From an uncultured Planctomycetia bacterium (GTDB taxonomy: Bacteria > Omnitrophota > Gorgyraeia > Tantalellales > Tantalellaceae), in assembly GCA_964409365.1 (NCBI GenBank), contig CAYPCX010000007.1:18655-82654 (forward strand): a stretch of 64,000 bases of DNA, in the 5' to 3' direction. Below, one piece after another: positions 24,748 through 41,504 of this stretch. Made by a program: the position numbers and the translations under genes. Position 1 is the stretch's first letter. Every line of letters begins with the position of its first letter. The notes under the pieces are model-generated. The model searched no databases and was not told the origin of the DNA. It saw only the letters and a program-made list of their open reading frames with translations.

Positions 24748-24752
24748 AGGTT

Positions 24753-25448: not shown

Positions 25449-25465
25449 GAGAGGAGAAACAGGAT

Positions 25466-25759: not shown

Positions 25760-25771
25760 CGGGGGAGACCG

Positions 25772-26905
25772 ATGAGGGTTTTGTATATTGCGAACAGGGC
25801 GGAGATCTTAAGCGGCGGGCAGATCAGCCTGCTCGAGTTCCTGGCGGGGATCGACAAAAGCAGGTTCGATCCGGTCGTCCTGTGCCCGGGAAAGGGGAGT
25901 CTCGCCGAGGGTTTAAGCGCTCTCGGTATCCCCGTGCGTTCTTGGGACATGCCCACCGTGAAGACGTTCAACATGAGCAGGATCCCGAAAAAGATCAGGG
26001 AACTGAGATCCATAATAAAGGAGACAGAGGCTTCGATAGTACATACCAACGGCAGCAGGGCCCAGTTCTATTCGTCGTTCGCGGTAAGGGGCACCGGTTG
26101 CGGCCTGGTGTGGAACGTGAGGGAATCGCTCCGGGATATCCCTTATTATGACCGGTTGTTGGCCGGCCCTTGCGACAGGATTATATGCGTTTCCAGGGCC
26201 GTAAGGGACAGGCGTTTCGGACGGTTCGCCTCGTCGGACCCGAAAATACAGGTGATATATAACGGGGTGGATACGCGCAAATTCGCCAAAGACCCCGAAG
26301 CGGGCCGGCGCGTGCGGGACGAATTAGGGATCGGTAAAGATAAAGTGCTTTTAGGTACTATCGGGATGATAATACCCCGCAAAGGACATGAATTTCTTTT
26401 CAGGTCGTTGAAGCAGGCCCTGAAAACAAATCCGGACCTGGTCCTCCTGGTCGCGGGGAAAACGCTGGAAGGGCCTTATACCTGCCGGTTCAAAGAGATG
26501 ATATACGAGCTGAAGCTGGAGAACAACGTGATGTTCACCGACTCGCGCGAGGATATAAAGGATATCCTGTCGGCCCTTGATGTTTTCATATTGTCATCCA
26601 AAAGCGAAGGGTTCAGCAGGGTGCTGCTGGAAGCCATGGCCTGTTCGCTGCCTATAATCGCCACGGATGTCGAAGGGAATAACGAGGCGATCGAGGACGG
26701 GGTATCCGGCCGGCTTGTGCCGTATGGCGACATAGACAGCATGGTCCTGGCGATAGAGGGTTTTATGGTGAACCGTCAGAACGCCGAAAACCTGGGGAAG
26801 AACGCCAAAAAAAGGGCGGGGGAATTTTTCAGTATCGACAGCCACGTATCCCAGGTGCAGGACCTGTACGGGGAAATAGTAAAAAGCAGAAAGCCGGGAG
26901 TTTGA
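25772..26905 (+). CDS. glycosyltransferase family 4
   Basis: SEGFSRVLLEAMACSLPIIATDVEGNNEAIEDGVSGRLV GT4 signature. Confidence 0.8.
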   Translation: MRVLYIANRAEILSGGQISLLEFLAGIDKSRFDPVVLCPGKGSLAEGLSALGIPVRSWDMPTVKTFNMSRIPKKIRELRSIIKETEASIVHTNGSRAQFYSSFAVRGTGCGLVWNVRESLRDIPYYDRLLAGPCDRIICVSRAVRDRRFGRFASSDPKIQVIYNGVDTRKFAKDPEAGRRVRDELGIGKDKVLLGTIGMIIPRKGHEFLFRSLKQALKTNPDLVLLVAGKTLEGPYTCRFKEMIYELKLENNVMFTDSREDIKDILSALDVFILSSKSEGFSRVLLEAMACSLPIIATDVEGNNEAIEDGVSGRLVPYGDIDSMVLAIEGFMVNRQNAENLGKNAKKRAGEFFSIDSHVSQVQDLYGEIVKSRKPGV

Positions 26906-29157
26906 TGAAGATCGGCATTGACGTCAGAGAGTTCAAGAAGGATACGTATACCGGGATAAGGAGTATACTCGGCAACGTTATGGGCCGTTCGGCGAAGATG
27001 GGAGGCAACGAATTCGTTTACTTCTGCGACCGGGACACCGATCTTCCGGCCCTTCCCGAAGAAGGTAAGAAGGTGGTCATCGCAGGGGATAATACCTTTT
27101 TCTGGGATCAGTCGCGCCTTCCGCTGGCGCTTTCAAGGGAAAAAGTGGACCTGTTCTTCTCGCCTTACATCAAGACGCCCCTGTGGAGGGTGTGCCCGTA
27201 CGTGAGCACTATATGCGACGTTATCCCGCTCGAGGTCCCCAAGCGCAAAGGGTTGGGCGCACTTTTGGAAAAAGCTTACTTTTACGCGTATTCTTTCCTG
27301 TGCGGCCGGCGGGCGGTAAAGGTGATAACGCTTTCGGAGAACTCCCGGGAAAGGATATCGGATACATTCGGTATAGGAAAAGAGAAGATAGAGGTCGTCT
27401 ACCCCTCGGTAGAGGCGCGCGCCGGACAGGCGGAGCCGGATGACAAGGCGAAGGAGCTTATCGACAGGTATAGTTTGGAGAGGCCTTTCTTACTGTATGT
27501 AGGTAATTTTAAACCGCATAAGAACCTGCGTAATCTTATTGCCGCTTACGATCTTTTGCCGGGAGGAGTGCAAGACCGGTACCGCCTCATGCTTGTGGGA
27601 GGTTCCGAAAAGGAGATGGAGGGGATAGAAGCGGTTATAAAAGAACACGGACTTTCGGGAAAGGTTACGCCCGTTGTCAACATCGGCCATGACGATGTCC
27701 GGGTATTTTACAGGCACGCTTCGGCCTTTGTCTTTCCTTCTCTGGCGGAGGGGTTCGGTATTCCCCCGGTAGAGGCGATGGCTTACGGGGTGCCGGTGGC
27801 GTCTTCGCGCCTGGCGCCCATGACCGAAGTGCTGGGTGAGGCGGCGCTTTTTTTTGATCCGCGTGACCCCGGGGACATCTCCGCCAAAGTGTCCAGGCTG
27901 CTCACGGAAGAGGGCTTGCGGAAAGAATACGCCGCACGGGGACGGGAGCGCGCTTTGTTGTTCGATCCCGACAGGATCTCGCGAAAGATGATGGATGTCC
28001 TGGAAAACGCCGGCCTGGAGAAGACCCTTTGCGTGAGCAGCGAATTCCCGCCGGTCAGGGGAGGTATAAGCACGTTTTTGTTCAATCTTTGGAACAGGCT
28101 GCCGAAAAGGGATATTGTCATCTTGACCGCGCGCCCGGCCGGGGAAGATATTTATCCGGATGAGGGAATGGATATCGTTAGGGAGGCGTATCCCCTGGGG
28201 AAGGGTATCTTCTCAAGGGCTGTACGGTCGATACTGCTGGTGTGGCATGTTTTGCGCCAGTGCCGGGCAAGGAATATCCGGCGCGTTCATTGCGCGCAAG
28301 TCCTTTCTGCGGGATCGGCGGGACTCCTCCTGAAATGGCTCAAAGGCACGCCGTACGTGGTTTACGCGTATTCGGCGGACATCCTCGAGTTCAGCAGAGG
28401 TTTTTTTACGGATTGGATGATGAGAAAGATATTTGCCGGCAGCGAGCGTGTCATAGCGAGCAGTATTTTTGCGAAGTCGCTTATTGTCGGGCATAAACTG
28501 GCCGGTGAAGACAAGATAAGCGTTATCGCCCCGGGGGTGGATACCGCAGAATACGATCCCGGCAAGGGGGCCGGCCGGATCAGGGAGACATACGGTATAC
28601 CGGCTGAAAGCAAAATGCTTCTTACGGTAGCGCGTCTGGCGGTCCGCAAAGGCCATGATAAGGTCATAGAAGCTTTGCCGGCCGTGGTAGAAGCTTATCC
28701 GGATGTCGTTTACGTCATAGTCGGGGAAGGCGGGACCGGGCCCGGACTTGCTGAGCGGGTAAGGGAAAAGGGGCTCGAGAAGAACGTGATATTTACCGGT
28801 GAAGTATCCGCGGAGCAGCTGGTATTCTTCTATAACGCGTGTGACATATTTATCCTTACCCCGCGCTATATAAAGGAAGAGGGTGACGTCGAGGGATTTG
28901 GTATAGTGTTCATAGAAGCGGGGGCGTGCGGCAAACCCGTAATAGCCGGCAGGAGCGGTGGAGTGTCTGAAGCGGTTGTTGACGGGGTGACCGGTATCCT
29001 CGTGGACCCGGAAAATACGGATCGGATCAGGGATGCCATGCTGACCTTGCTCGGGGACGCAAGTTTAGCTCGAAAAATGGGCACGAACGGGCTTACCAGG
29101 GCCCGGGAAGAATTCGGATGGAAGAACCGGGCGCGGGAACTGGAAAAATACATATAA
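26902..29157 (+). CDS. tandem double-GT4 glycosyltransferase (two GT-B modules fused)
   Basis: 751 aa. First module ends near FPSLAEGFGIPPVEAMAYGVPV...LAPMTEV. Second module has ILTPRYIKEEGDVEGFGIVFIEAGACGKPVIAGRSGGVSEAVVDGVTG. Confidence 0.75.
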   Translation: MMKIGIDVREFKKDTYTGIRSILGNVMGRSAKMGGNEFVYFCDRDTDLPALPEEGKKVVIAGDNTFFWDQSRLPLALSREKVDLFFSPYIKTPLWRVCPYVSTICDVIPLEVPKRKGLGALLEKAYFYAYSFLCGRRAVKVITLSENSRERISDTFGIGKEKIEVVYPSVEARAGQAEPDDKAKELIDRYSLERPFLLYVGNFKPHKNLRNLIAAYDLLPGGVQDRYRLMLVGGSEKEMEGIEAVIKEHGLSGKVTPVVNIGHDDVRVFYRHASAFVFPSLAEGFGIPPVEAMAYGVPVASSRLAPMTEVLGEAALFFDPRDPGDISAKVSRLLTEEGLRKEYAARGRERALLFDPDRISRKMMDVLENAGLEKTLCVSSEFPPVRGGISTFLFNLWNRLPKRDIVILTARPAGEDIYPDEGMDIVREAYPLGKGIFSRAVRSILLVWHVLRQCRARNIRRVHCAQVLSAGSAGLLLKWLKGTPYVVYAYSADILEFSRGFFTDWMMRKIFAGSERVIASSIFAKSLIVGHKLAGEDKISVIAPGVDTAEYDPGKGAGRIRETYGIPAESKMLLTVARLAVRKGHDKVIEALPAVVEAYPDVVYVIVGEGGTGPGLAERVREKGLEKNVIFTGEVSAEQLVFFYNACDIFILTPRYIKEEGDVEGFGIVFIEAGACGKPVIAGRSGGVSEAVVDGVTGILVDPENTDRIRDAMLTLLGDASLARKMGTNGLTRAREEFGWKNRARELEKYI

Positions 29158-29163
29158 AGGGCC

Positions 29164-30324
29164 ATGAAGCGGTATAAGATCTTACATGCGATAACGCGTT
29201 TAGATAAGGGCGGTTCCTCCGTGAACACGCTGCTCAGCGCTATCGGCCTCGCGGAAAAGGGATATGAAGTGGATCTTTTATCCGGCCGGACGATGGAACC
29301 GGATAATGATCTTATCGAACGGGCCGGGAGTTCGGGGGTGCGTTTTATTTACGAGGAACGCCTGGTCAGGGATATACATCCCGTAAAGGATATCACCGCG
29401 TTTTTCAGGGTGCTGGGCTTTCTGCGCAGGAACCGGTACGATATCGTGCACGCCCATTCGTCGAAAGCGGGGCTCATCTGCCGGATGGCCGCGAAATGCG
29501 CGGGAGTAAAAAATACAGTGTACACCCCCCATGGCCACGTGTTCTACGGGTATTTCGGCAGGGAACTTTCCCGGATGGTGGTCTTCGCCGAGGCGCTGCT
29601 GGCCCATATAACGGACAGGACGATCGGGCTTACTCCCGCCGAGTGTGACGAGTGGCTCCGTTTCGGGATAGGAAAAAAAGATATGTACGAAGCCATACCC
29701 AGCGGTATAGAGTTCGACCGGCTGGAACTCGAGGCGGAGAAAGGGAAAGACTGGAGGAAGGAGCTCGGGATCCCCCGGGAAGCCCCGTTTATCGGGTCCA
29801 CAGGCAGGTTCGCCGAGGTGAAAGGCTATAAATATTTTATAAGAGCGGCCGCGGAACAGGTAAAAAAACACCCGGATACACATTTTCTGCTGGCAGGCGA
29901 CGGGCCCCTCCGCGGTGAATTCGAAAAGATTATCAAAACCAGCGGGATCGAAAAGAATTTCCACATCATAGATTGGCAGGAGAACGCGGGGTCTGTTATA
30001 AAAGCGTTCGATGTTTTCGTGCTTTCCTCTCTTAACGAAGGGATGGGGAGGGCCCTGATAGAGGCGATGTTCCTCTGTAAGCCCGTTATAGCCACGCGTG
30101 TGGGAGGTGTGCCTTCGGTGGTATCGAAGGATACGGGGGCGCTTGTTGAGCCCGCCTCGTCTCAGGCCCTGGCGGCGGCCATGGACAGGCTGCTTAGTGA
30201 CCGGGGTAAACTGGAGGAGATGGGAAGGAAAGCCAGAGAGAGGGCGCTTGCCGGTTATTCGGCGGGCGAGATGGTGAACAGGCTTGACAAACTGTACAGG
30301 GAACTGTTAGAAAATAATAAGTAA
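29164..30324 (+). CDS. glycosyltransferase family 4
   Basis: SSLNEGMGRALIEAMFLCKPVIATRVGGVPSVV GT4 signature. Confidence 0.8.
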   Translation: MKRYKILHAITRLDKGGSSVNTLLSAIGLAEKGYEVDLLSGRTMEPDNDLIERAGSSGVRFIYEERLVRDIHPVKDITAFFRVLGFLRRNRYDIVHAHSSKAGLICRMAAKCAGVKNTVYTPHGHVFYGYFGRELSRMVVFAEALLAHITDRTIGLTPAECDEWLRFGIGKKDMYEAIPSGIEFDRLELEAEKGKDWRKELGIPREAPFIGSTGRFAEVKGYKYFIRAAAEQVKKHPDTHFLLAGDGPLRGEFEKIIKTSGIEKNFHIIDWQENAGSVIKAFDVFVLSSLNEGMGRALIEAMFLCKPVIATRVGGVPSVVSKDTGALVEPASSQALAAAMDRLLSDRGKLEEMGRKARERALAGYSAGEMVNRLDKLYRELLENNK

Positions 30325-30467
30325 CAAGGACAAAGGATAAAGGAAAAAGTAACAAGTAAGCAGGGTATAGGTGGATATTCGATGTGCTATATACGATATG
30401 CGAAATACGATATACTGGTTGCAAAACAAAAACCCTTAATTCTTAATACTTGATACTTTTTACTCGA
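30321..30467. repeat. 147-bp (21 x 7) heptamer-periodic degenerate array filling the intergenic spacer
   Basis: Read in register: gtaacaa ggacaaa ggataaa ggaaaaa gtaacaa gtaagca ... cccttaa ttcttaa tacttga tactttt tactcga. Contains the 17-mer aaggataaaggaaaaag, also present at 975-991. Confidence 0.8.
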
Positions 30468-30481
30468 AACGGATCGTTTAC

Positions 30482-31168
30482 ATGAAGATAGCTATACACC
30501 AGCCGCAGTATCTCCCATGGACGGGATATTTCGATAAGATGGACCGGGCGGACGTCTTTGTCCTTCTGGACGATGTCCAGTACAAGAAGAACGAGTGGCA
30601 GAACCGTAACCGCATCCGTAATGCCGAAGGCTGGCAATGGATCACGGTCCCCGTCCTGTACGAGTTCGGCCAGAAAATAAACGAGGTCAGGATCAATAAT
30701 AAAGAGAACTGGAGGGAGAAGCACCTTAAAAGTCTCGAGGTCAACTACTCCCAGGCCGCCCATTTTGATGAATATATCCTTTTTTTCAGGAAGCACTACG
30801 CTTGTGAATGGGAGAAGCTGGTCGATATAAACGTCCGTTTTATCGAATACCTGGCGGACACGATGGGTATAACGACGGAGATCGTGAGGAGTTCTTCGCT
30901 GGGCATAGGCACTGAAAAGACCCGGCGGCTGATCGATATATGCAAAGCGGTGGGTGCTGACGAGTACCTTTCCGGGGCGGGAGGGGGCGACTACCTCGAG
31001 GAAGAAAAGTTCGCCGGTGAAGGCATCAGGCTTGAATACCAGAAATATGAACAGAAACCCTATGAGCAGGTGTATAATGGATTTTGTCCGGACCTTTCGG
31101 CCGCGGACCTTTTATTCTGTTGCGGGAAAGACAGTATCAATATAATAAGGGAAGGGAGAAAAGAATGA
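30482..31168 (+). CDS. WbqC-like family protein
   Basis: MKIAIHQPQYLPWTGYFDKM...VLLDDVQYKKNEWQNRNRI is the hallmark WbqC-like N-terminus. Confidence 0.75.
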   Translation: MKIAIHQPQYLPWTGYFDKMDRADVFVLLDDVQYKKNEWQNRNRIRNAEGWQWITVPVLYEFGQKINEVRINNKENWREKHLKSLEVNYSQAAHFDEYILFFRKHYACEWEKLVDINVRFIEYLADTMGITTEIVRSSSLGIGTEKTRRLIDICKAVGADEYLSGAGGGDYLEEEKFAGEGIRLEYQKYEQKPYEQVYNGFCPDLSAADLLFCCGKDSINIIREGRKE

Positions 31169-31900: not shown

Positions 31901-32938
31901 ATGATCCCGCATTCAAGACCAACGCTGGGTGAGGAAGAGGCGCAGGCCGCAGCGGAGGTAATACGCTCGGGCCATATAGCCCAGGGAGAAAAGGTAAAAG
32001 AGTTCGAGGGGAAATTGGCGCGGTTCATCGGCGTGAAAGGCGCGGTATGCGTCAATTCCGGCACATCCGCCCTGCATCTGGGCCTTATTGCCATGGGGAT
32101 CGGTCCCGAAGATATCGTGCTCCTTCCTTCGTTCGTCTGCAGCGCTCCGCTGAACGCCATATACCATACGCTGGCCGAGCCCCGTCTTTGCGACATAGAA
32201 CCCGAAAGCTTCAATATCTCCCTGGAAAGCGTAGAAGATAACAGGACTGAGGAGACAAAAGCTGTAATAGTCCCCCATATGTTCGGGGCTCCGGCGGATC
32301 TGCAGAAAATAGAGGAGACAGGCATCCCCGTGATAGAAGATTGCGCTCATTCCGTCGGCGCCGCCTACGGCGACAGAAAAGTCGGCAGTGTGGGACGTTT
32401 CAGCATACTGTCTTTTTATGCCAACAAGATGCTGGCATGCGGCGAGGGAGGGGCGCTCCTTTCCGATGACGAGGAGATACTTTCCAGGGCGAGGGACCTC
32501 AGGGATTATGACGAAAAAGAAGCGTACAGGGTCCGTTACAATTACAAGATGACCGACATACAGGCGGCAGTGGGCCTGGTACAGCTTGAGAAGCTCCCCG
32601 GGATGATAGAGAAAAGGAAGGGAATAGCCTCCCGTTATAACGAGGCTTTCAAGGATCTGGACGTCGTATTGCCTAAGGCGGAGTTCGACCATGTATATTA
32701 CAGGTACGTTATCAGGACCGGTAAGGACGTACAGGACATTATCAGGGCCGGGCAGGAAAAAGGGGTGACTTTTGCCAGGCCCGTATATAGACCCTTACAC
32801 CGCTATCTTGAGCTCAGGTCAGGTTTCCGTAATGCCGACGAGGCCTATTCTTCGGCTTTATCCATTCCTATCTACCCGTCCCTCAGCGGGGAAGAGCAGG
32901 AAAAGGTCATCGATGCGGTCCACCTGCTTTCCAAATGA
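31901..32938 (+). CDS. DegT/DnrJ/EryC1/StrS family PLP-dependent sugar aminotransferase
   Basis: Full-length fold-type I aminotransferase, EFEGKLARFIG, SFYANKMLACGEGGALLSDDEE (PLP Lys region). Confidence 0.85.
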   Translation: MIPHSRPTLGEEEAQAAAEVIRSGHIAQGEKVKEFEGKLARFIGVKGAVCVNSGTSALHLGLIAMGIGPEDIVLLPSFVCSAPLNAIYHTLAEPRLCDIEPESFNISLESVEDNRTEETKAVIVPHMFGAPADLQKIEETGIPVIEDCAHSVGAAYGDRKVGSVGRFSILSFYANKMLACGEGGALLSDDEEILSRARDLRDYDEKEAYRVRYNYKMTDIQAAVGLVQLEKLPGMIEKRKGIASRYNEAFKDLDVVLPKAEFDHVYYRYVIRTGKDVQDIIRAGQEKGVTFARPVYRPLHRYLELRSGFRNADEAYSSALSIPIYPSLSGEEQEKVIDAVHLLSK

Positions 32939-32995
32939 AATCATATTTGTTATAATAATCATACAGCGGATATATGTTAAATTTCTCATATTGCC

Positions 32996-33772
32996 ATGAA
33001 ACGATCCCAGGAACTCAGACTTGACGCTAAGAACAAAAAGCTTTTCTTCGGAAGTGGGAACTGTGATGAAGTGCGCCATCTGTGCGAGGCGATATGCTGC
33101 AGGACGTATGACGTGAACATCAGCGAAGAAGAATACCGCTCCGGCAGATACAAGGCCAGACCGACGTGCAGATTGACCGGGAGGGATTGCGAAAGCAAAG
33201 ATTCGAATTGCATCAACAGAGAGTTCTGGATGTATAGGAAGGCAGATAGATCCTGCGTCTATCTAACCGGAGACAATAAATGCTCTATATATGAATGGAG
33301 ACCGGAAGCGTGCAGGGAGTTTCATTGCGTGGACGGGTGGGTAATATCCCATGCATGCCTTTCAACGAACAAGGAAAGCGTAAAGGCGCGAAAGGACATT
33401 CTTGACGAACATATACTTAAAATAATGAAAGATGACATGAAGTTCAGTCCTAACCCTCTCGTCCGGCCCAAAGCGTTGTTCTATTCAAAAGATAAAAAAG
33501 AAATACACTTTGCGATAGATATCGCGAATAAATGCGGCCTGTCGACCTCCCGCCGCGAAGCCGTCACCTCGGCGCTTGATGGGAATATGCTGTTGGAACT
33601 TTTTGGTCTTTTTGACGGGAATAGAGATCTGGGATCCGTCAGAAAGGAGTTTAACGACAGGTTCGGCCAAGTATTGTCCAGAGAGGACCTTTACCGTATT
33701 GTATGGCTTTTCAATACCGAGAAATTGATAGTTTTCACGCATTGTGCGCTGGTGTTCGGAGATAAGCAGTGA
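32996..33772 (+). CDS. fusion protein: N-terminal YkgJ-like Cys-rich zinc/iron-chelating domain plus C-terminal PqqD-like (RiPP recognition element-like) domain
   Basis: N-terminal half has 14 Cys including CEAICC and CSIYEWRPEACREFHC (compare YkgJ CxxCxxCC ... C.IYE.RP..CR.F). C-terminal 90 aa (HFAIDIANKCGLSTSRREAVTSALDGNMLLELFGLFDGNRDLGSVRKEFNDRF...EDLYRIVWLFNTEKLIV) follow the PqqD pattern. Confidence 0.6.
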   Translation: MKRSQELRLDAKNKKLFFGSGNCDEVRHLCEAICCRTYDVNISEEEYRSGRYKARPTCRLTGRDCESKDSNCINREFWMYRKADRSCVYLTGDNKCSIYEWRPEACREFHCVDGWVISHACLSTNKESVKARKDILDEHILKIMKDDMKFSPNPLVRPKALFYSKDKKEIHFAIDIANKCGLSTSRREAVTSALDGNMLLELFGLFDGNRDLGSVRKEFNDRFGQVLSREDLYRIVWLFNTEKLIVFTHCALVFGDKQ

Positions 33773-34872
33773 TCTCTAAGATGATACCTTTTCCCACTAC
33801 TGTAGACCTGGCTCTTACCGGCAGGTGCAATCTGAGATGCAAACATTGCAACGCTTCCGATGCCTGGGAGTTGGAGAGCGAACTGTCTTTTGATGAGATA
33901 ATAGGGGTTCTCGATCAGATCAGGAAGGAGAAGGTCTTCAATCTGAACCTTTTTGGAGGAGAGCCGTTCTGTTATCCTGAGATCCACGAGATCCTGGAAG
34001 CGCTCAACAGTTATCCGATAAGGATCACTATCCTCACCAACGGCACGCTTATTGACAAGAAAGCCGTTGAGTCGGTCAAAAAGATGAGGTTCCTGGCCGC
34101 TGTACAGGTGAGCGTTGATGGTTCGAACCCTTCCGTGCATGACTGGCAAAGAGGAGAGGGATCGTTCGACAAGGCAATGAACGGGGTCAGGCTGCTCATG
34201 GAAGAGGGCTTGCCGGTGAACTTAAAGGCCATTATCAACAGGCACAATATCGATGATATGGAGAATATGATCCGTATGGCAATGGGCCTGGGCCTCGGCG
34301 GCATGGATTTCGGTGATGCCGTAGAGTGCGGCAGGGCCGCGGTATACGCTAACGAACTTGTTTTCGAAGGCGAGACGCACCGGAAGATGATGGAGACCAT
34401 GTTCCGTCTGAAAAAAAAGTATCCGCGCTTTAACCTGGGCGGGACGCTGGGGCAAAAGGTAAGTATGCTCTGTGACTTTTACGCGAATGGCCGGGGTAAG
34501 GGCGCCAGGGGGACGTTTTCAACCTGCCCCGCGGGATTCAGCATGCTTTCGATACGGTCCGACGGGAAGGTGGTCCCTTGTTCCGCTTTCTGGACGCTTG
34601 TCTGCGGTGATCTTGGAGAACGGTCCCTGAAGGATATATGGGAGAATTCGCAGGTCCTGAACGAGATACGGGCCCTTGCGGATGAGGCTCTTGATAAATA
34701 TAAGAAAGAATGCGCTGATTGCGATTATCTCACCTACTGTAACGGGGGATGCCGGGCGGCCGCTTATTATTCCGCCGGGGGGGATTTAAGAGGCATCAAT
34801 ATGTCGACCTGTCTCGTATTTTCGGATCTGTACGGTTTCAGGGTGGAAAAGGATACCGCTTTATCGGCTTAG
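33769..34872 (+). CDS. radical SAM/SPASM domain peptide-maturase-like enzyme 1
   Basis: GTG 33769 with ggagat SD; overlaps the upstream stop. CNLRCKHC (CX3CX2C), LFGGEPF. C-terminal SPASM cysteines (CPAGF...CSAF...CADCDYLTYCNGGCRAAAY). Confidence 0.8.
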   Translation: MISKMIPFPTTVDLALTGRCNLRCKHCNASDAWELESELSFDEIIGVLDQIRKEKVFNLNLFGGEPFCYPEIHEILEALNSYPIRITILTNGTLIDKKAVESVKKMRFLAAVQVSVDGSNPSVHDWQRGEGSFDKAMNGVRLLMEEGLPVNLKAIINRHNIDDMENMIRMAMGLGLGGMDFGDAVECGRAAVYANELVFEGETHRKMMETMFRLKKKYPRFNLGGTLGQKVSMLCDFYANGRGKGARGTFSTCPAGFSMLSIRSDGKVVPCSAFWTLVCGDLGERSLKDIWENSQVLNEIRALADEALDKYKKECADCDYLTYCNGGCRAAAYYSAGGDLRGINMSTCLVFSDLYGFRVEKDTALSA

Positions 34873-34885: not shown

Positions 34886-36016
34886 ATGAGCATGTGTAAT
34901 GAAAAAACAACAGGAAATGTCGCGCCGGAAGGCGACTTGACCAGCCTGTATATCAACCCTACCAGATACTGTAACCTTAAGTGCAGGCATTGCTGGATAT
35001 CTCCGCCGCAGAAAGAAGAACTGGACGGAAAGGGCGGAGAACTGTCGACCGGGGAGATCACAGGGATCATAAAAGAAGCGAAGGGACTGGGACTTAGGGA
35101 CGTCAAGTTCACCGGTGGAGAGCCGCTTTTACGGAAGGATATTACGGAACTTTTGAGGTTCTGCTATGAAGAAGAGGTAAAAACTTCCATAGAGACCAAC
35201 GGCACTTTGATCGACAAAGAGCTGGCTTCAGCCATGAAAAGATACGGGGTGTCTTTCATAGCGGTGAGCCTCGACAGCTACCGGGAAGAACTGAACGACC
35301 GTTTCAGGGGGCGCAAGGGAGCGTTCAAAAAGGCATTGGCGGGCATCAGGGCGCTGATCGACGAGGGCATCAGGCCGCAGGTGATTATGAGCATGTACAG
35401 GGAGAATTTCACCGACCTGCCCGAGTTCCTGAAGATGATGCAGGATCTGTGGGTCAATAATATCAAGCTGAACACTATAACGCCTCTGGGAAGGGGGGCC
35501 TCGCTTTATGATACAGGTGAGATACCCTCGGTCAGGGAGATACTCGAGTTTTTGGAAAGGCTCGGCAGTATCAGAAGGTCGTTCAAAGGCCGGTTATACC
35601 TGGACGTTCCTATAGCTTTCAAAAGTGTCGAGGAAATACACGCGGGCTGTGGGGTGTGTCACATCAAGAATATCCTCGGCATATTGTCGGACGGGAGTGT
35701 CTCTATCTGCGGGATAGGCCATCTTGAGGAGGAATTGCTTTTCGGGTCGGTCAGAGAAGATCCATCCGCATTGAAGTACATCTGGCGCGAAAATACCGTC
35801 CTTAAAAAGATCAAAGAGGAAATACCTTACAAGTTGAAAGGGGTCTGCAGCATCTGTGTTTTCAGGAACAAGTGCCTGGGGTACTGCAGGGCCGAAATAT
35901 ATCATAACACCGGGGATCTTTTCGCGCCGTACTGGTTTTGCCAGGAAGCTTATGACAAGGGGCTTTTTCCTCCAACCAGGCTTGTGCCGGAACCTTTGAG
36001 AGCGGGATATGGATAG
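34886..36016 (+). CDS. radical SAM/SPASM domain peptide-maturase-like enzyme 2
   Basis: CNLKCRHC, FTGGEPL. SPASM cysteines (CGVCHIKN...CGIG...CSICVFRNKCLGYCRAE). Confidence 0.8.
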   Translation: MSMCNEKTTGNVAPEGDLTSLYINPTRYCNLKCRHCWISPPQKEELDGKGGELSTGEITGIIKEAKGLGLRDVKFTGGEPLLRKDITELLRFCYEEEVKTSIETNGTLIDKELASAMKRYGVSFIAVSLDSYREELNDRFRGRKGAFKKALAGIRALIDEGIRPQVIMSMYRENFTDLPEFLKMMQDLWVNNIKLNTITPLGRGASLYDTGEIPSVREILEFLERLGSIRRSFKGRLYLDVPIAFKSVEEIHAGCGVCHIKNILGILSDGSVSICGIGHLEEELLFGSVREDPSALKYIWRENTVLKKIKEEIPYKLKGVCSICVFRNKCLGYCRAEIYHNTGDLFAPYWFCQEAYDKGLFPPTRLVPEPLRAGYG

Positions 36017-36815
36017 CATTTCTTATAGTGCTTTCAGGACAACCATACGTCTTAATTTCCTTAATTTTGAAGAAAGACCGGAATTATTCAAGCCGTCCGA
36101 TTCGCGGGGGGAAGGAAAAGCAGATCTGGATATTTACCTGTACAGGGGCAAGCGCAAGGAGATATCCCGCAAAGCGGAGAGAAGCCGTTTTCCGGTCAGC
36201 GCGGAGACGTTCGAAGGCAAGAAGGTCATCCGGCTTTACGACGGTAAGAGCAAAAGGGTCTTCTGTTTTTTTGAGGAAGGCCTGCTCATCGATCTGGTGA
36301 CGAACAGAGCGCTCAACCTTCCCCTGATGGACCTTCAGAACGTTCTGGACATTGTTTTCATGCATTCCGCTTCGATAGTGATGAACGGCAAGGCGTACCT
36401 TTTTATAGCTCCGAGCGGGGGCGGGAAAAGCACGATAGCCGCTCTGGCCCGGGATGAGGGTTTTTTTGTGATAGACGATGATTTCTGCGCGGTGAAAAGG
36501 TCCGGCGGGAGCTTTTTCGCGGCGCGTTTTCCGTGTTTTCTGTCGAAACGAAAAAGATTTAAAGAATGGGAAGTGGGTGGGCTTTTTCTTCTGAACAAGT
36601 CAAAAGAGAACAAGGTAAGGCCCGTTTCGGGCATCGAAGCGTTGCGCGATGCACTGCCCGAAGCGGTCCGTTATCCCCGTGAGAGAGTAGGCGCCATGCG
36701 GAACCAAGATTATCTCAGGGATGTTTTTTGTTTCCTGGACGAGATGATAGATCGTGTAGGGTTGAGCGTTCTTGATTTCAAGAAGGAAGCAGGTGTTTTC
36801 TCGTGTCTGGTCTAA
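36009..36815 (+). CDS. HPr kinase/phosphorylase C-terminal-domain-like P-loop protein (HprK-related kinase)
   Basis: HSASIVMNGKAYLFIAPSGGGKSTIAA matches the HprK C-domain P-loop region (HG..V...G.G.L..G.SG.GKS). 268 aa, no N-terminal HprK domain. Confidence 0.6.
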   Translation: MDSISYSAFRTTIRLNFLNFEERPELFKPSDSRGEGKADLDIYLYRGKRKEISRKAERSRFPVSAETFEGKKVIRLYDGKSKRVFCFFEEGLLIDLVTNRALNLPLMDLQNVLDIVFMHSASIVMNGKAYLFIAPSGGGKSTIAALARDEGFFVIDDDFCAVKRSGGSFFAARFPCFLSKRKRFKEWEVGGLFLLNKSKENKVRPVSGIEALRDALPEAVRYPRERVGAMRNQDYLRDVFCFLDEMIDRVGLSVLDFKKEAGVFSCLV

Positions 36816-38548
36816 GCTTTTTCGACGGCATTTTCGCTTCGAGGCGTCTTGTTTTACTTGAAGACCTGAAGGGTGTCCTGTCTTATGCGTCTGGCATACT
36901 TAAGAAAGACCGCTTTTCCCTGGCAATGGCCTCTTTCCTGAAGCTTTTAAGTTTCCCGCTGGGTATATCGATAGTCTACATAACGAAAGAGACCTTGGAT
37001 AAAGGTATAATGTCTAAGGACCTGAGGTCGTTCGGGTTCTTCACTGCGCTGGGCCTTTTCGTTTTTCTTCTCATGAGAGTGCTGCTGTACTTTTCGGGGA
37101 GGATCATGAACAGCGTGAAGACAAAGTTTTCCCTTGCGGTGGATCATGACCTTGCCAGGAGGCTTTTCGGTCTTGATTATCTGAAGATAAGACAACTGAG
37201 CTCCGCTGAGAACGCTTTTTACGTGAGTTACGATTGCGGTATCATCGAGAACCTGGTATTCTACGAGCTTCCCGCTCTTTTATCCTTTGTGAAAATACCC
37301 GTTTTCTTTATCCTCGCGGCGCTTTTGTCCTGGCAGTTGAGCCTATTCGTGTTTCTGGCTGTCCCGTTCGCTGTAATGCATACTATCTGGGCGTCGCGAA
37401 AGAGGCGGAGATTGAGATCGGGGTATGTGAAATCAGCGGGCAAGTCCAACGCGCTTTTTAGTGACTTCCTGATCAACGTTAAGCTTATCAAGAGCTTTTT
37501 TAAGGAAAGCTGGGCCGTTGACAGGATCATGAGACGGTTCCGGAGAAAGGCCAGGATAGACCTTTTATCTTCCCGTTTCAGGCAGGTCGAGAGATTTGTA
37601 TACGATATTTTTTCAAAATCCAGCACGGCAGCATTCTGGCTGCTGGGAGGGTATTTAATAATAACCGGCAAGTTAAGTCTTGGATCTTTCAGTGCCGTAA
37701 GCATGTATTCCGCGATGCTGTTATCAGAAGTATACAACCTGGGGTCCATTGTACGGAACCTGAACGAGGAGGGGCCTTCTATACACAGGAGTGCGCAATT
37801 TATAAGGGACATTACCGGGCCGGCTGAAGATGTTCCCGCGGTGCCGGTATCTGGCAAGTCGTTTTTTGGTGGAGATATCGAGTTCAGGGATATCGCGTTC
37901 GGATATAGTAAAGAAAAGCCTCTTTTCCAGGGACTGAACATGCTGGCGCCCGCGAGAAAGTGGACGTTGATAAAAGGTCCTTCCGGCGTCGGCAAGACAA
38001 CGCTTCTAAGTTTGATGATCAGGCTCTTCAGGTCCTGGCGCGGCGGGATCTATATCGGGGGGACGAATATCTTTGATGTGGACATTGGCCGCTTTTCCGG
38101 ATACGTTTCATGCGTGCATCAGGAATCGTATATATTCAATGACACCATCTTTAACAATGTACTTTTGGGTGATAAGAAGCCGGGCGGTCTCGTCAGGGAG
38201 GTCATGCGATTGACAAGGCTTGACGAGCTTGCCGATGACCTTTCTATCGGCTATAATACCAAGATAGGCGAACTTGGCGCAACCCTTTCAGGGGGGCAGA
38301 AGCAGCGGGTCGCGATCGCGAGAGCACTTATAAGAGAACCGAAGGTGCTTATACTGGACGAAGCGACTTCGTTTCTTGACGCCAGGATGGAAAGTGATAT
38401 TTTGAGCGACATAAAGGAACAGTTTTCCGGGCTCACGGTCCTGTATGTCACTCACAGGGAGACCGCGGACAGGTTCGCCGATGTTATCTTTGAACTTAAA
38501 GAGGAAAGGGTCGGATATGGAAGAGAAATGTCCTGTAAGAAATCCTGA
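36803..38548 (+). CDS. ABC transporter, fused permease/ATPase (exporter type, no peptidase domain)
   Basis: N-terminal 6-TM exporter domain. NBD with Walker A GPSGVGKTT, signature LSGGQKQRVAIARAL, Walker B ILDEATS. Confidence 0.85.
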   Translation: MSGLSFFDGIFASRRLVLLEDLKGVLSYASGILKKDRFSLAMASFLKLLSFPLGISIVYITKETLDKGIMSKDLRSFGFFTALGLFVFLLMRVLLYFSGRIMNSVKTKFSLAVDHDLARRLFGLDYLKIRQLSSAENAFYVSYDCGIIENLVFYELPALLSFVKIPVFFILAALLSWQLSLFVFLAVPFAVMHTIWASRKRRRLRSGYVKSAGKSNALFSDFLINVKLIKSFFKESWAVDRIMRRFRRKARIDLLSSRFRQVERFVYDIFSKSSTAAFWLLGGYLIITGKLSLGSFSAVSMYSAMLLSEVYNLGSIVRNLNEEGPSIHRSAQFIRDITGPAEDVPAVPVSGKSFFGGDIEFRDIAFGYSKEKPLFQGLNMLAPARKWTLIKGPSGVGKTTLLSLMIRLFRSWRGGIYIGGTNIFDVDIGRFSGYVSCVHQESYIFNDTIFNNVLLGDKKPGGLVREVMRLTRLDELADDLSIGYNTKIGELGATLSGGQKQRVAIARALIREPKVLILDEATSFLDARMESDILSDIKEQFSGLTVLYVTHRETADRFADVIFELKEERVGYGREMSCKKS

Positions 38549-38789
38549 TATCGTGGCGCGAAGGGAGAAGAAAGAAGCGCTTCTTTTCAATCCCGCTGAT
38601 GGCCACATGCTGTGTATTAACGGTACCGGTATGTTCGTCTGGGACCTGTGTGACGGGTCAAGTTCGGGGGACGATATTGTCGAAAAAATAGCGAATGTTT
38701 ATGAAATTACTTGCGAAAAAGCGACCGAAGATTATGATCGCTTCATAAAGGATATGGAGAAAGCCGGATTTATAGGATACAGAACCTGA
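38517..38789 (+). CDS. PqqD family protein (stand-alone RiPP recognition element-like peptide chaperone)
   Basis: ATG 38517 lies within the end of the ABC gene. NPDIVARREKKEALLFNPADGHMLCINGTGMFVWDLCDGSSSGDDIVEKIANVYEI...ATEDYDRFIKDMEKAGFIG matches the PqqD pattern closely. Confidence 0.7.
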   Translation: MEEKCPVRNPDIVARREKKEALLFNPADGHMLCINGTGMFVWDLCDGSSSGDDIVEKIANVYEITCEKATEDYDRFIKDMEKAGFIGYRT

Positions 38790-38799
38790 AGGGGGCCGT

Positions 38800-39096
38800 A
38801 TGAAGAAGAAAAAGAAGAAGTACACTCCTCCTCTTGTCCATGACCTGAGCGGTACGACTATCAGGGGGGCCCAGGCGTTCAATTGCAAAAGCGGCGCCGA
38901 AGCCGGACAGCTTTGTGATTTCGGCGCTGTGGCCGGTGGACAATGCAATACCGGAAGGGTGGCTACGCTCGGATGCTCTGCCGGCGCTGAATACGTCCCG
39001 ATGCCGAAACAATGCAGACCCGGGTTCATGGCTACCCAGCAGTGCCGTGACGGCACGTCGGCTCAGGGCACGTGTAAGACGGGATTCGGCTTTTAG
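38800..39096 (+). CDS. candidate RiPP precursor peptide: 98-aa Cys-rich peptide with a hexa-lysine N-terminus and seven tandem C-x-x-G decapeptide repeats
   Basis: gggggc RBS 6 nt upstream. MKKKKKKYTPPLVHDLSGTTIRGAQA then FNCKSGAEAGQL CDFGAVAGGQ CNTGRVATLG CSAGAEYVPMPKQ CRPGFMATQQ CRDGTSAQGT CKTGFGF. Eight Cys; every repeat starts C-x-x-G. Sits between the PqqD and peptidase genes. Confidence 0.55.
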   Translation: MKKKKKKYTPPLVHDLSGTTIRGAQAFNCKSGAEAGQLCDFGAVAGGQCNTGRVATLGCSAGAEYVPMPKQCRPGFMATQQCRDGTSAQGTCKTGFGF

Positions 39097-39119: not shown

Positions 39120-39848
39120 ATGCGCAGGATCGTGTACGGCCAGAGCATGATGCCATTTCTCAGGATGCTGGATGAATGCGTCTGCAAAAGTATAGACCCT
39201 CTTCAGATAAGTGCAGGAGATATAGTAACCTACCGCATACCCGATTGTGGTGCCACTGCCATTCACCGGGTCCTATATGTGAACAAGGAAGAAAAACATA
39301 TTGTAGCCAAGGGCGACAATATTCTTTCTGTCCCCGGTGACATAGTGCCTTTTTCGGAGGTGAAGGAAAAGGTGGTAACTGTTAAAAGGGGGGACAGGGT
39401 CTTTGATCTGGATACTTTTCCCCGCAGACGGGCGAACGCTCTTATCGCGTTCCTTTCCCGTCATAACCTGACGCCGTTTTTGGTCAAAAGGAGATTCCTT
39501 TCGCCGGTATTATTGAGTATTTCAAGAAAAAAGATCTACAAAGATGCGAGGAAGAGATATTATAAAAAGCTCTTTTTCACGTCCTATAGAAGCGGGGAGG
39601 GCCTTCGCTTTTTTGCTTTCGTGGGCAAGACAAAGAGCGCGGATGCCCTGATAAAAGAAAAGTCTGGATGCGGCGTGATAGTGAGCGCGCGTATCAGGCA
39701 CAGGGACAGGAACGAAGAGTTCGCCCGCGTATTCCTTGACAAGATCATAGAAGCGGCGGACAGGCAGTATGGCTCGGAGCATGATATCCATATAACCGAT
39801 GATACTTTCGAGGACCTTTTTTTGACTCCCACCGAATATAATGCATAA
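39120..39848 (+). CDS. Sec11/SipW-type (Ser-His dyad, ER/archaeal-type) signal peptidase I homolog with about 120-aa C-terminal extension
   Basis: YGQSMMPFL (catalytic Ser box), GDIVTYRI, AIHRVLYV (HRV His box as in SipW/Sec11 rather than bacterial KR), KGDN. The C-terminal 120 aa have no recognisable family. Confidence 0.55.
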   Translation: MRRIVYGQSMMPFLRMLDECVCKSIDPLQISAGDIVTYRIPDCGATAIHRVLYVNKEEKHIVAKGDNILSVPGDIVPFSEVKEKVVTVKRGDRVFDLDTFPRRRANALIAFLSRHNLTPFLVKRRFLSPVLLSISRKKIYKDARKRYYKKLFFTSYRSGEGLRFFAFVGKTKSADALIKEKSGCGVIVSARIRHRDRNEEFARVFLDKIIEAADRQYGSEHDIHITDDTFEDLFLTPTEYNA

Positions 39849-40983
39849 CATAGAACTTTTCCCGGCTTTGGGTTTCGATCTTTCCGCTTTAAGCGATGAA
39901 AAAAAGCTCATCGTCCTTTTTTCCAGGACGGATCTTGATGATGATATCCGGACGCAGGCGGAGTCCATACTTCACCCGGATAAAGTGGACTGGGACCGTT
40001 TCCTTGAGCTTGCCAACGTAAATCAGGTAACCTCTCTTTTTTACAGGTCCATTCAGCGGGTCGACGGCATTCCCGAAAAGGTGCTGGCCCGTTTGAGGGA
40101 ATGGTCGGCCGATATCTTCGCTTATAACATTAGGAACTTTGACGCCGCGAGGAGGCTTTCGGAACTTTTCCGCGAGGAAGAGATGGAGATCATTTTCACG
40201 AAGGGGCTTCCGTATCTCATTGATATATATGAAGATATGGGGCTCAGGGAGATGGCGGACGTCGATATTTTAGTGAAGCCGGAGGATATTCGCAAGGTGG
40301 ACATGCTGCTGGAAGGCGAAGGGTTCGCTCCTTTCGAAGAAAAGGAAGGGCTTGACGATTACAGGGCCCAGAAACTGTATTTTCGGGGTGACGGGATACA
40401 CCTGGACGTGCACAGGGGTTTTGTCGGGCGCATGCTGCACAACAGGGTCTTGGGAATAGATCCGGAAAAGGCCTGGGAGAATAAAAGAGAGCTCAGAAGG
40501 GACGATGTCCGCATTGATACACTTGACCTCACTCATACGCTTGTTTACCAGTGCCTGCACCTTTCCATGCAGCACAGTTTTTCCGGGATAAGGTGGTACG
40601 TCGACATCAATGAGTTCGTGAGAAAGTATGAGAAAGAGATCGATTGGGACAGGCTGGTCGACGCCGCGGGGGAGTACAGGATCAGGAAGCCCGTTTATTA
40701 TTCGCTTCTTTTTACGAAGGACATGTTCGATGCTCCCGTGCCCGGCCGGGTCATGAAAGAACTGAGCGGGGCAACGGGCAGGTGGGACCGGTGGTTCTTC
40801 CGCCGGATAAAGGCGAACGCGACGGGCGTGGATTATCTCGCGGAACTGGCGATGTTCGACAACTGCCTGGATGCCGCAAAGTTCATCATGCTGAGTTTCG
40901 TGTTTTATCCTCGCCGGATATTGCATTTTTTCGGGATATCAGGCAGTATATTTAAGGCATTACTATGGAAAAAGAAAAGTTGA
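39841..40983 (+). CDS. nucleotidyltransferase family protein (uncharacterised nucleotidyltransferase, NTP_transf_5-like)
   Basis: 380 aa. ADVDILVKPEDIRKVDMLLEGEGF (GS/D..D nucleotidyltransferase core context). Same length and architecture as the NTP_transf_5 proteins seen in lasso-peptide and PqqD-containing clusters. Confidence 0.55.
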   Translation: MHNIELFPALGFDLSALSDEKKLIVLFSRTDLDDDIRTQAESILHPDKVDWDRFLELANVNQVTSLFYRSIQRVDGIPEKVLARLREWSADIFAYNIRNFDAARRLSELFREEEMEIIFTKGLPYLIDIYEDMGLREMADVDILVKPEDIRKVDMLLEGEGFAPFEEKEGLDDYRAQKLYFRGDGIHLDVHRGFVGRMLHNRVLGIDPEKAWENKRELRRDDVRIDTLDLTHTLVYQCLHLSMQHSFSGIRWYVDINEFVRKYEKEIDWDRLVDAAGEYRIRKPVYYSLLFTKDMFDAPVPGRVMKELSGATGRWDRWFFRRIKANATGVDYLAELAMFDNCLDAAKFIMLSFVFYPRRILHFFGISGSIFKALLWKKKS

Positions 40984-41504
40984 GAGAGGTCTGGTGGACT
41001 ATAGCCGCGGCGTATGTCCTGGTTATCTATTCCACCCTTACGGTCGCGCCGAGTATATGGGAAAGTATCGATGTTTTCTTCGGCGGCAAGGCCATAATTG
41101 TCCTGTATTCTCTTTACTTCATAGCTGTCGTTTCTGTTCTGTATTATCTCATCCATGTAAAAAGAGAAATGTTCATTCTGACCTATATACTTTTTTTCCT
41201 TTTCATCGCTATCCTGTTCATGCTGACGAAGCTCGTAAAGAGTCCCGCGGAAAAGATACACTTGGCCGAGTACGCGATATTGGGAGTCATTTTATACAAC
41301 GCTTTAAAGGTGGATCTCGATGTTTACGGCGGAAAGCTTTATTTGTACGGTTCTCTCATCTGCGTTTTAGCGGGTTTTGGCGACGAAATAATACAGAAGT
41401 TCCTCCCCGGCAGGTTCTTCGGGTGGAAAGACGTCACCGTTAACGCCGTCAGTGGTATAATAGCCCTGCTTATGATCAGGTTCGTTGTCCTGAAAAAAAG
41501 TTAG
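40965..41504 (+). CDS. VanZ-like family membrane protein
   Basis: Four TM helices and the GFGDEIIQKFLPGRFFGWKDV motif typical of VanZ-like proteins. Overlaps the upstream gene by 19 nt. Confidence 0.6.
   Translation: MEKEKLREVWWTIAAAYVLVIYSTLTVAPSIWESIDVFFGGKAIIVLYSLYFIAVVSVLYYLIHVKREMFILTYILFFLFIAILFMLTKLVKSPAEKIHLAEYAILGVILYNALKVDLDVYGGKLYLYGSLICVLAGFGDEIIQKFLPGRFFGWKDVTVNAVSGIIALLMIRFVVLKKS

Follow-up and report, generated by a model that had tools for sequence, protein, structure and literature searches.

A Repeat Peptide within a Ten-Gene Operon

The stretch of DNA analysed here, called the window throughout, comprises 64,000 nucleotides of contig CAYPCX010000007.1 (positions 18,655 to 82,654 of the forward strand; GenBank assembly GCA_964409365.1), from an uncultured bacterium deposited under the Planctomycetia and placed by GTDB in the Omnitrophota. 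Between positions 32996 and 41504 of the window, Pfam, NCBIfam and inspection of the sequence revealed ten plus-strand genes, tightly packed and often overlapping, and our interest centred on the one that encodes a small peptide made of seven cysteine-containing modules. The original prediction for this gene had been that it encodes a precursor peptide modified by the neighbouring radical S-adenosylmethionine (radical-SAM)/SPASM enzymes, with a PqqD-family protein as chaperone, and the comparative evidence set out below, conservation and linkage, supports that idea. The predicted order of the genes, two SPASM enzymes, an exporter, PqqD, the peptide and a signal-peptidase-like gene, was likewise confirmed by the Pfam and NCBIfam assignments.

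The open reading frame (ORF) translates exactly as had been predicted, and the seven Cys that had been listed are where they were said to be, at residues 29, 39, 49, 59, 72, 82 and 92, each followed by x-x-G (CKSG, CDFG, CNTG, CSAG, CRPG, CRDG and CKTG). The claim of a near-perfect array of decapeptides holds for five of the six intervals between these Cys, and fails for the unit from C59 to C72, which has 13 residues (the series being 10, 10, 10, 13, 10 and 10). Of the consensus proposed, C-x-x-G-x-x-A-x-x-Q, the Ala at module position 7 was found in five of the six complete units, whereas Gln precedes the next Cys in only three of the six. The leader had been given as 24 residues long, but the string quoted for it, MKKKKKKYTPPLVHDLSGTTIRGAQA, has 26, and the boundary between leader and core that we use is a predicted one. 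When the 72-residue core was shuffled, none of 1,000,000 permutations had seven C-x-x-G motifs (the maximum was six), and none had at least five spacings of exactly 10. In the DNA of the precursor gene Tandem Repeats Finder reported only the (GAA)n of the poly-Lys run, and no tandem repeat under the module array; the periodicity exists at the protein level only, and the repeats are therefore old and kept by selection, not the product of a recent DNA duplication.

A search of 5.8 billion proteins produced the identical protein on several metagenome contigs and three relatives at 76, 71 and 55% identity, and among these orthologues the seven Cys and the Gly at +3 from each are invariant. The gene differs from its counterpart in one related locus (L002) at 89 nucleotides, 59 of them at third codon positions, and comparison with another (L003) gave a ratio of nonsynonymous to synonymous substitution rates (dN/dS) of 0.19. 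A minus-strand ORF of 132 codons (38658-39056) overlaps both the precursor gene and, at its 3' end, the PqqD gene, and since it shares its wobble phase with the plus frame it mimics purifying selection, so that dN/dS alone cannot separate the two frames. As a real gene the antisense ORF was rejected, because stop codons break its frame in L003 and L001. The plus frame is open in all loci and has a Shine-Dalgarno sequence upstream, one that in the orthologues L001-L003 is stronger than in the window (GAGGTGAT or GGAGGAG, at the same position), and independent gene callers also predict it. The precursor ORF is real, and it is under purifying selection.

AlphaFold2, supplied with 17 homologues, modelled the peptide as disordered (predicted local distance difference test, pLDDT, 40.5), as would be expected of the substrate of a pathway for a ribosomally synthesised and post-translationally modified peptide (RiPP), and the model argues against a small protein that folds by itself. 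The leader is polar and contains no hydrophobic H-region (the highest mean Kyte-Doolittle value over 11 residues was 0.99), and it is therefore not a Sec signal peptide. No Pfam or NCBIfam model matched the peptide above threshold.

A Large Family of Precursors

With the ScmF-like radical-SAM enzyme of the operon as bait, one scan of 185,579 species genomes produced six loci, in metagenome-assembled genomes (MAGs) labelled Omnitrophota, 'Planctomycetia', Deltaproteobacteria and Desulfobacteraceae. The original prediction had named homologous cassettes devoid of such a peptide as the finding that would speak against it, and the prediction passed this check: five of the six loci carry a small ORF with 5-7 C-x-x-G motifs, and the contig of the sixth (L008) stops about 160 bp past the enzyme match, too early for a judgement. 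An exhaustive search of 1.84 billion cluster representatives (50% identity) with a profile of 17 members returned 860 proteins at E<=1e-3 and 77 at E<=1e-10, nearly all of them 70-140 residues long and aligned from leader to C-terminus. The family lives mostly in metagenome assemblies, with MAGs labelled Omnitrophota and Deltaproteobacteria/Syntrophales, and wherever its database entries have a name, that name is 'hypothetical protein'.

Members of the family share a leader motif, [K/R]-x-x-Y-E/T-P-P-x-phi-phi-D-L, followed by 4-12 C-x-x-G-x-x-[A/P] modules. In a leader logo of 194 distinct peptides, for which the search pattern itself fixed Y at position 0 and P at +3, K/R stands at -3 in 95%, E at +1 in 85%, P at +2 in 72%, D at +7 in 62% and L at +8 in 85%, with A-[Y/H/Q]-A often at +13 to +15 and the first Cys at +19 to +23. 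Statistics on the modules of 142 family members, with C1 and G4 as the anchors of the count, gave 4-10 modules per core (most often 5-6), a Cys spacing of 10 in 404 cases and 11 in 212, and either Ala (68-75%) or Pro (17-22%) at position 7. The distance from Cys to position 7 is fixed, and the length variation and the variable residues come after it. In 155 of the 194 peptides 7-10 residues lie beyond the last Cys, and the final module is therefore complete. The window peptide conforms to this grammar, with K5, Y8, P10, P11, D15, L16, A24-Q25-A26 and, at +21, C29.

Longer proteins were also encountered. One member of 236 residues (L032, 4867-5589) has, after seven modules, a charged tail of about 120 residues rich in Asp, Glu and Lys. 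In five proteins of 770-1843 residues (P0019, P0028, P0030, P0051 and P0089) the repeat profile matched in up to 19 stretches, with 21-47 CxxG motifs, and these could be surface proteins whose Cys repeats are unrelated, or else remote relatives of the modules.

Linkage of the Peptide to Its Enzymes

A metagenome scan with an alignment of the PYEPPR clade of the family added 46 further loci, and hidden Markov models built from the window proteins were iterated over all ORFs of 61 loci. Twenty non-redundant loci had 3 kb or more of DNA on either side of the peptide gene; of these, 17 contained radical-SAM/SPASM genes, 18 PqqD genes and 17 NTP_transf_5 genes. The ScmC-like and NTP_transf_5 proteins are linked to the peptide as tightly as are the radical-SAM enzymes, and the ScmC-like gene is the immediate neighbour of the peptide gene in the PYEPPR and deltaproteobacterial clades; neither this linkage nor the identity of the cassette discussed below had figured in the original prediction. 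The window's clade is distinguished by three proteins of its own: the ABC exporter, the CxxCxxCC protein and the VanZ-like protein. The peptide family is genomically locked to two radical-SAM/SPASM enzymes, PqqD-type proteins, a ScmC-like protein and an NTP_transf_5 protein.

The cassettes differ in their further content. In the deltaproteobacterial cassette (L013/L014, 3088-12012) there are three genes for PqqD, an extra radical-SAM gene of the B12-binding kind and a large gene for a methyltransferase, and a short S26-like gene (127 aa) lies downstream of the peptide. At L012 (9443-11879) PqqD, the peptide and a long ScmC (502 aa) stand together with no radical-SAM gene within 10 kb, and there ScmC with PqqD may act on the peptide independently of SPASM enzymes. 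A Syntrophus MAG (L011) encodes tandem precursors of 113 and 116 aa (9512-9850 and 10001-10348), seven modules each, and within 10 kb of them PqqD, radical-SAM and ScmC genes are all missing; L015 is an orphan of the same kind, and in both the precursors may be encoded apart from their enzymes.

Glycan genes form another recurring element of the neighbourhood. In the window's clade the cassette is closely preceded by a gene for a DegT-family aminotransferase, which occurs in distant PYEPPR-clade loci as well, and in PYEPPR-clade loci a WecA/MraY-like membrane transferase with a NAMNFIDGMDGLA motif comes after it; the regions concerned are 31901-32938 in the window, 6084-8346 in L039, 170-2441 in L053 and 1835-2908 in L008. 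This adjacency could be functional, perhaps by way of a sugar decoration that involves NTP_transf_5, or it could be coincidental. Elsewhere in the window a third radical-SAM/SPASM gene (18030-19097, plus strand; Radical_SAM E 3.6e-18, SPASM E 1.1e-13) lies within a long series of genes for glycosyltransferases, heptosyltransferases and methyltransferases (15704-31168); it probably has no connection with the peptide cassette, and its substrate may be a sugar.

The Operon and Its Products

The genes of the operon and the parts of the precursor gene are collected in Table 1.

Table 1. Positions in the window of the ten genes of the operon and of the parts of the precursor gene.
Feature	Position	Strand	Details
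CxxCxxCC protein, first operon gene	32996-33772	+	258 aa; N-terminal Cys-rich domain PF03692, E 1.1e-4
Radical SAM/SPASM enzyme, ScmE-like	33769-34872	+	Radical_SAM E 4e-28, SPASM E 4e-12; best NCBIfam match TIGR04250 (ScmE)
Radical SAM/SPASM enzyme, ScmF-like	34886-36016	+	Best NCBIfam match TIGR04251 (ScmF)
ScmC-like P-loop protein with HprK/PEPCK-type kinase features	36009-36815	+	Walker A APSGGGKST; IDDD motif
ABC exporter, fused membrane and ATPase domains	36803-38548	+	ABC_membrane, ABC_tran
Stand-alone PqqD-family protein, putative leader-binding chaperone (RiPP recognition element, RRE)	38517-38789	+	PF05402 E 4.7e-16; best NCBIfam match TIGR04248 (ScmD)
Shine-Dalgarno-like GAAGGGGG	38788-38795	+	Read from sequence; ends 5 nt upstream of the ATG of the precursor gene
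Precursor peptide gene	38800-39096	+	98 aa; translation MKKKKKKYTPPLVHDLSGTTIRGAQAFNCKSGAEAGQLCDFGAVAGGQCNTGRVATLGCSAGAEYVPMPKQCRPGFMATQQCRDGTSAQGTCKTGFGF
Precursor, leader part (predicted boundary)	38800-38877	+	aa 1-26; poly-Lys stretch, then Y-T-P-P-L-V-H-D-L, with A-Q-A at the end
Precursor, core part (predicted boundary)	38878-39096	+	aa 27-98 and stop codon; seven C-x-x-G-x-x-[A/x] modules
Anchorless Sec11/archaeal-type (S26B) signal-peptidase-like protein, putative leader peptidase	39120-39848	+	242 aa
NTP_transf_5 protein ('uncharacterised nucleotidyltransferase')	39841-40983	+	PF14907 E 2.4e-51
VanZ-like membrane protein, last operon gene	40965-41504	+	PF04892 E 9e-6, under gathering score; 19-nt overlap with the NTP_transf_5 gene

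Both radical-SAM enzymes look functional from their motifs. The ScmE-like enzyme has CX3CX2C at residue 20 and CX2CX5CX3C at residue 315, and the ScmF-like enzyme has the same two at residues 29 and 321; in each, Pfam recognises SPASM, and the complete SPASM Cys motif is joined by upstream Cys residues, the arrangement expected for the auxiliary clusters of sactipeptide and ranthipeptide maturases. The solved structure nearest to the ScmE-like enzyme is that of the sactisynthase SkfB (6efn, E 1.8e-20), and the ScmF-like enzyme matched BlsE, PqqE, SuiB, SkfB and CteB in the PDB. The best NCBIfam match of the ScmC-like protein is HprK_rel_A (E 4.8e-5), with ScmC second (E 3.2e-4), both under cut-off, and its orthologues are assigned to PF27840 (ScmC) in precomputed Pfam annotation. 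A profile of the ScmC family found P-loop proteins and ATP-dependent phosphoenolpyruvate carboxykinase (PEPCK) in the PDB at E about 1e-3. These profile matches are consistent with an HprK/PEPCK-type fold and fall short of proof of one; PDB searches with the ScmC-like and S26-like proteins as single sequences returned nothing useful.

The start of the PqqD gene is most likely 38517, giving 90 residues, and not 38445, because gene callers place it there in the identical contigs L009/L010. Upstream of the CxxCxxCC gene is a promoter-like site (32928-32956, 10/12 matches). Orthologues of the CxxCxxCC protein were found in the window's clade only (5 loci), and Pfam had no match to its C-terminal domain. 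Its C-terminal third (residues ~200-235) weakly resembles the PqqD profile (hhalign probability 43%, E 2.4e-4), and if that likeness is true, this PqqD/RRE-like region would be a second leader-binding domain in a cassette with one PqqD. The ABC exporter, in which Pfam detected no C39 peptidase domain, is present in every cassette of the window's clade. The VanZ-like gene holds the same position in those clade cassettes that are long enough (the window, L001/L004, L002, L003, L005 and L009) and was not seen in L006; immunity or self-protection is a possible function for its product, as is that of an accessory factor.

Synteny with the window is complete in the contigs that carry the 76% and 55% relatives. 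Their common order is DegT, CxxCxxCC, the two radical-SAM genes, ScmC, ABC, PqqD, the peptide, an unnamed protein of 235-253 aa, NTP_transf_5 and VanZ, with one or more response regulators, TGT, YajC, SecDF, a cation-efflux gene and RecJ downstream of VanZ. A horizontal-transfer island was considered and rejected, as there is no GC anomaly and the flanks are conserved between lineages; for the same two reasons the cassette looks vertically inherited.

Since the exporter has no C39 domain, another protease is needed to remove the leader, and a dedicated, anchorless Sec11-type peptidase, the product of 39120-39848, is the most economical reading. This protein carries the catalytic Ser and His motifs that define S26B peptidases, GQSMMP (Ser9) and IHRV (His49), together with KGDN. 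Across an alignment of seven sequences His49 and the KGDN Gly do not vary, and six of the seven have Ser9; the remaining ORF, as called, begins two residues past the Ser position. A profile of the orthologues matched human SEC11C (E 6.7e-9) and SEC11A (E 5.3e-8) in the PDB (7p2q, 7p2p) across the SM-P, HRV and KGDN motifs, and the model for archaeal-type signal peptidase I, TIGR02228, was matched at E 2.3e-9 with 37.3 bits, under its cut-off of 51.85. SipW is a bacterial example of the S26B signal peptidases, and peptidases of family S26 cut at small-x-small patterns. The protein resembles them in its Ser, His and KGDN motifs and in the small-x-small A-Q-A of its expected substrate, which ends the leader immediately before F27-N28-C29, but it differs in the following: it is without a transmembrane anchor (hydropathy over 19 residues peaks at 0.96, and there are only 14 in-frame codons ahead of the start), it has an extra C-terminal domain of about 150 aa for which Pfam detected no relatives, and its substrate is without a hydrophobic core. 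AlphaFold2 on the single sequence gave an unusable model (pLDDT 33.5). From these motifs the protein is the predicted leader peptidase, with A26 as the residue after which it would cut.

Relatives among Known Systems

The closest described family is, by profile comparison, the SynChlorMet (SCM) cassette of TIGRFAMs/NCBIfam (TIGR04248-04252), whose models are ScmA (TIGR04252), ScmC (TIGR04249/PF27840), ScmD (TIGR04248), ScmE (TIGR04250) and ScmF (TIGR04251). Syntrophobacter fumaroxidans MPOB, Chlorobium limicola DSM 245 and Methanocella paludicola SANAE are among the species that the TIGRFAMs description gives for SCM cassettes. The window's cassette has the same ingredients, two SPASM enzymes, PqqD, ScmC and a small precursor, in an SCM-like gene set and order, and an Scm model is the best NCBIfam match of PqqD and of both radical-SAM enzymes, with ScmC the second-best for the P-loop protein. 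It differs in having one PqqD instead of two or three and in adding an ABC exporter, a Sec11-type peptidase, a CxxCxxCC protein and a VanZ-like protein. All of the enzymes score under the SCM cut-offs (ScmE 219 of 400 bits, ScmF 319 of 400, ScmD 46.9 of 100 and ScmC 20 of 125), and so does the peptide, with 12.8 bits (E 0.1) against an equivalog cut-off of 35 for ScmA; its relatives reach about 20 bits at best, and none of about 30 tested attains 35. Two of them, P0009 (residues 9-60) and P0015 (residues 16-65), cover positions 1-49 of the ScmA model, from Y-E-P-P into the repeats, and the window peptide aligned only at model positions 18-45, within the repeats, in a comparison that is with the model and not with a canonical ScmA sequence. 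Because every window protein scores under the model cut-offs, we call the cassette SCM-like: the locus is evidently, as judged from these profiles, an SCM-related variant, and by the curated criteria it does not belong to the family. The searchable literature yielded no experimental paper on SCM cassettes or on the peptide family, though such papers may exist, and a compendium of RiPP radical-SAM enzymes does not mention the family.

Among systems whose chemistry has been established, PapB, which installs six thioethers in the repeated CXXXD motifs of PapA (PMC12373016), offers the best mechanistic analogy for what may be one ring per module. Freyrasin (PapA/PapB) and other ranthipeptides resemble the window's system in a repeat core, one Cys per repeat and a radical-SAM/SPASM maturase. 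The window differs in that its module, C-x-x-G-x-x-A/P, has no conserved Asp/Glu acceptor, and in having two maturases instead of one, together with kinase-like and NTP-transferase partners. A freyrasin-type identity was rejected, as there is no CX3D; the C-X3-D/E pattern is missing, and the PapB model NF047865 gave 93 bits against a cut-off of 340. To the sactipeptides (SKF/SkfB and subtilosin/AlbA) the likeness lies in SkfB being the nearest structure and in a linkage, from Cys to C-alpha, that tolerates Ala/Gly-type acceptors and fits Ala7. They differ from the window in that their Cys donors, on the N-terminal side, pair in a hairpin with acceptors on the C-terminal side, where the window has tandem modules, and in that their RRE is fused to the enzyme; the window enzymes are far under the cut-offs of the AlbA and SkfB models.

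For the two remaining proteins the parallel is with lasso peptides. In pseudomycoidin the HprK-type kinase PsmK phosphorylates the lasso peptide, and an uncharacterised NTP transferase, PsmN, is needed for the addition of hexose (PMC6993621). As with PadeK and the PsmK-PsmN pair, the window has an HprK-like P-loop protein with a DD motif and a nucleotidyltransferase beside a RiPP precursor, and a PqqD-type RRE; the differences are that it has no lasso cyclase and no B2 protease, and that its peptide family is without a conserved C-terminal Ser. The likeness of ScmC to the HprK models is weak (E 5e-5). By analogy with this pair, the ScmC-like and NTP_transf_5 proteins may add a phosphate-linked decoration.

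Other identities were discarded. There was no SCIFF precursor model among the NCBIfam matches of the peptide (E up to 10) and no SCIFF maturase among the best 25 matches listed for each enzyme (of 87-90 families), and a SCIFF identity was rejected on both counts. A bufferin was rejected, there being no multinuclear non-haem iron-dependent oxidase (MNIO) and no Sec signal peptide.

A Proposed Route of Maturation

We regard it as likely that the ORF encodes a RiPP precursor matured by the products of the ten-gene operon, by a route along the following lines. Leader binding is the known role of PqqD-type RREs, and the PqqD protein would bind the Y-x-P-P...D-L leader and present the disordered core to the two radical-SAM/SPASM enzymes. 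These would link the sulfur of each Cys to a carbon within its own module, in a ring of about seven residues per module, from Cys(i) to about i+6, so that the window peptide would end up with a series of seven small thioether rings. The ScmC-like kinase-fold protein and the NTP_transf_5 protein would add a modification of the phosphate or the nucleotide/sugar type, the anchorless Sec11-type peptidase would remove the leader after A24-Q25-A26, and the ABC transporter would export the product; a protective part for the producer may fall to the VanZ-like protein. That the peptide is a precursor is well supported; the thioether chemistry, the cleavage site and the roles of ScmC and NTP_transf_5 are what we infer.

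Thioether rings, one per module, are probably what the SPASM enzymes form. They are favoured because Cys is the only invariant side chain in the module, because SkfB is the structure nearest to the ScmE-like enzyme, with CteB, SuiB and PqqE also matched, and because PapB sets a precedent of one ring per repeat. The ring from Cys(i) to about i+6 is suggested by the fixed distance from Cys to position 7 and by a last module that is always complete. As there is no conserved acidic acceptor, a sactionine-like link to the C-alpha of Ala/Pro, or some other connectivity, is possible. Two further chemistries were rejected: a lanthipeptide-like route in each module, by kinase-driven dehydration of Ser/Thr and addition of Cys, since module 2 (CDFGAVAGGQ) is without Ser/Thr, and formylglycine formation of the anSME type, whose motif is C-x-P/A-x-R, since that motif is absent from the peptide.

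Several observations weigh against parts of this proposal. The thioether chemistry is deduced solely from the periodicity of the Cys and the class of the enzymes, and the radical-SAM enzymes score about equally against the models of AhbD/NirJ, WgkB, MftC and PqqE as against those of sactisynthases. Only Gly4 and Ala/Pro7 are conserved as possible acceptors, with no obvious side-chain handle and no Asp/Glu of the PapB type. Ser/Thr is not conserved in every module, and the target of the kinase-like protein is not evident. All SCM models were matched only under their curated cut-offs. Small-x-small patterns also commonly precede the first Cys in the PYEPPR clade, in whose cassettes the S26-like gene was undetected, and the motif therefore need not be the cleavage site of this peptidase. 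Finally, some family peptides lie far from any enzyme (L011 and L015), and one stands beside PqqD and ScmC only (L012).

The fullest version of the proposal we offer tentatively, as a possibility that may well not hold in all its parts together: a widespread RiPP class in which two SPASM enzymes ring each module to an unactivated Ala/Pro, ScmC and NTP_transf_5 decorate the product and a cytosolic Sec11-type peptidase releases it. We know of no description, for sactipeptides or ranthipeptides, of a Cys ring to an unactivated Ala/Pro position.

Alternative Explanations

The same enzymes might leave the cysteines modified in another way, as heterocycles or altered thiols, or free after epimerisation or the formation of C-C links, so that the product would be a metal-binding peptide with many sites, a metallophore. 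Regular thiols in a flexible chain rich in Gly, Ala and Ser would suit metal binding, there is no conserved acceptor side chain, the weaker matches include SbtM, a model for a radical-SAM maturase that forms thio(seleno)oxazoles, and RiPP metallophores derived from Cys are known, for example the bufferins (PMC11626156). Bufferins, however, use MNIO enzymes and true Sec signal peptides, neither of which was found here, the structure closest to the ScmE-like enzyme is a thioether synthase, and the fixed spacing from C to +6 fits a ring within the module; we consider a metallophore rather unlikely.

An unlikely explanation, too, is that the peptide serves as a scaffold for a small molecule or cofactor, in the manner of PqqA (for pyrroloquinoline quinone) or MftA (for mycofactocin): the radical-SAM/SPASM and PqqD proteins would alter residues of every module, and proteolysis would then free several identical small products from each precursor. 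Both enzymes have PqqE and the mycofactocin maturase among their significant matches, a repeated core would give several times the yield, and the synteny in three independent contigs with the housekeeping genes TGT, YajC, SecDF and RecJ, with no GC anomaly, favours a physiological role over a strain-specific toxin. Yet the modules vary except at C, G and A/P, so that the products released would differ, and their number varies from 4 to 12; there is a single protease gene, of a type specific for small-x-small sites, and the dedicated ABC exporter and the VanZ-like gene suggest a peptide that is exported.

That the ORF is a chance product of GC-rich DNA, or an unmodified small Cys-rich protein that happens to lie within an operon, could draw on the want of a Pfam or NCBIfam match above threshold, on the overlapping antisense ORF of 132 aa and on the orphan copies at L011 and L015, but it is very improbable given that all Cys are kept at 55% identity under purifying selection, that the antisense frame acquires stops in the orthologues, that there are about 860 related clusters with a systematic linkage to PqqD and radical-SAM genes, and that the peptide has neither a signal peptide nor a predicted fold, so that the spurious-ORF version is effectively refuted.

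Significance

A Cys-rich precursor beside radical-SAM/SPASM genes is a familiar pattern in genome mining, and the SCM-type cassette has so far been a bioinformatic prediction. What the window and its relatives add is a defined precursor family, with a leader motif and a module grammar shared by about 860 clusters, that is tied to such a cassette and whose peptides current NCBIfam models miss. They also provide a concrete substrate and enzyme set for heterologous reconstitution, with a testable ring from Cys to position 7, and a possible leader peptidase of a type for which we found no report in RiPP pathways. If the chemistry is new, the family would be an added RiPP class from little-studied uncultured lineages, the MAGs labelled Omnitrophota and Deltaproteobacteria; if it proves to be ordinary sactionine or ranthionine formation, the family would still be a large, unannotated branch of those classes.

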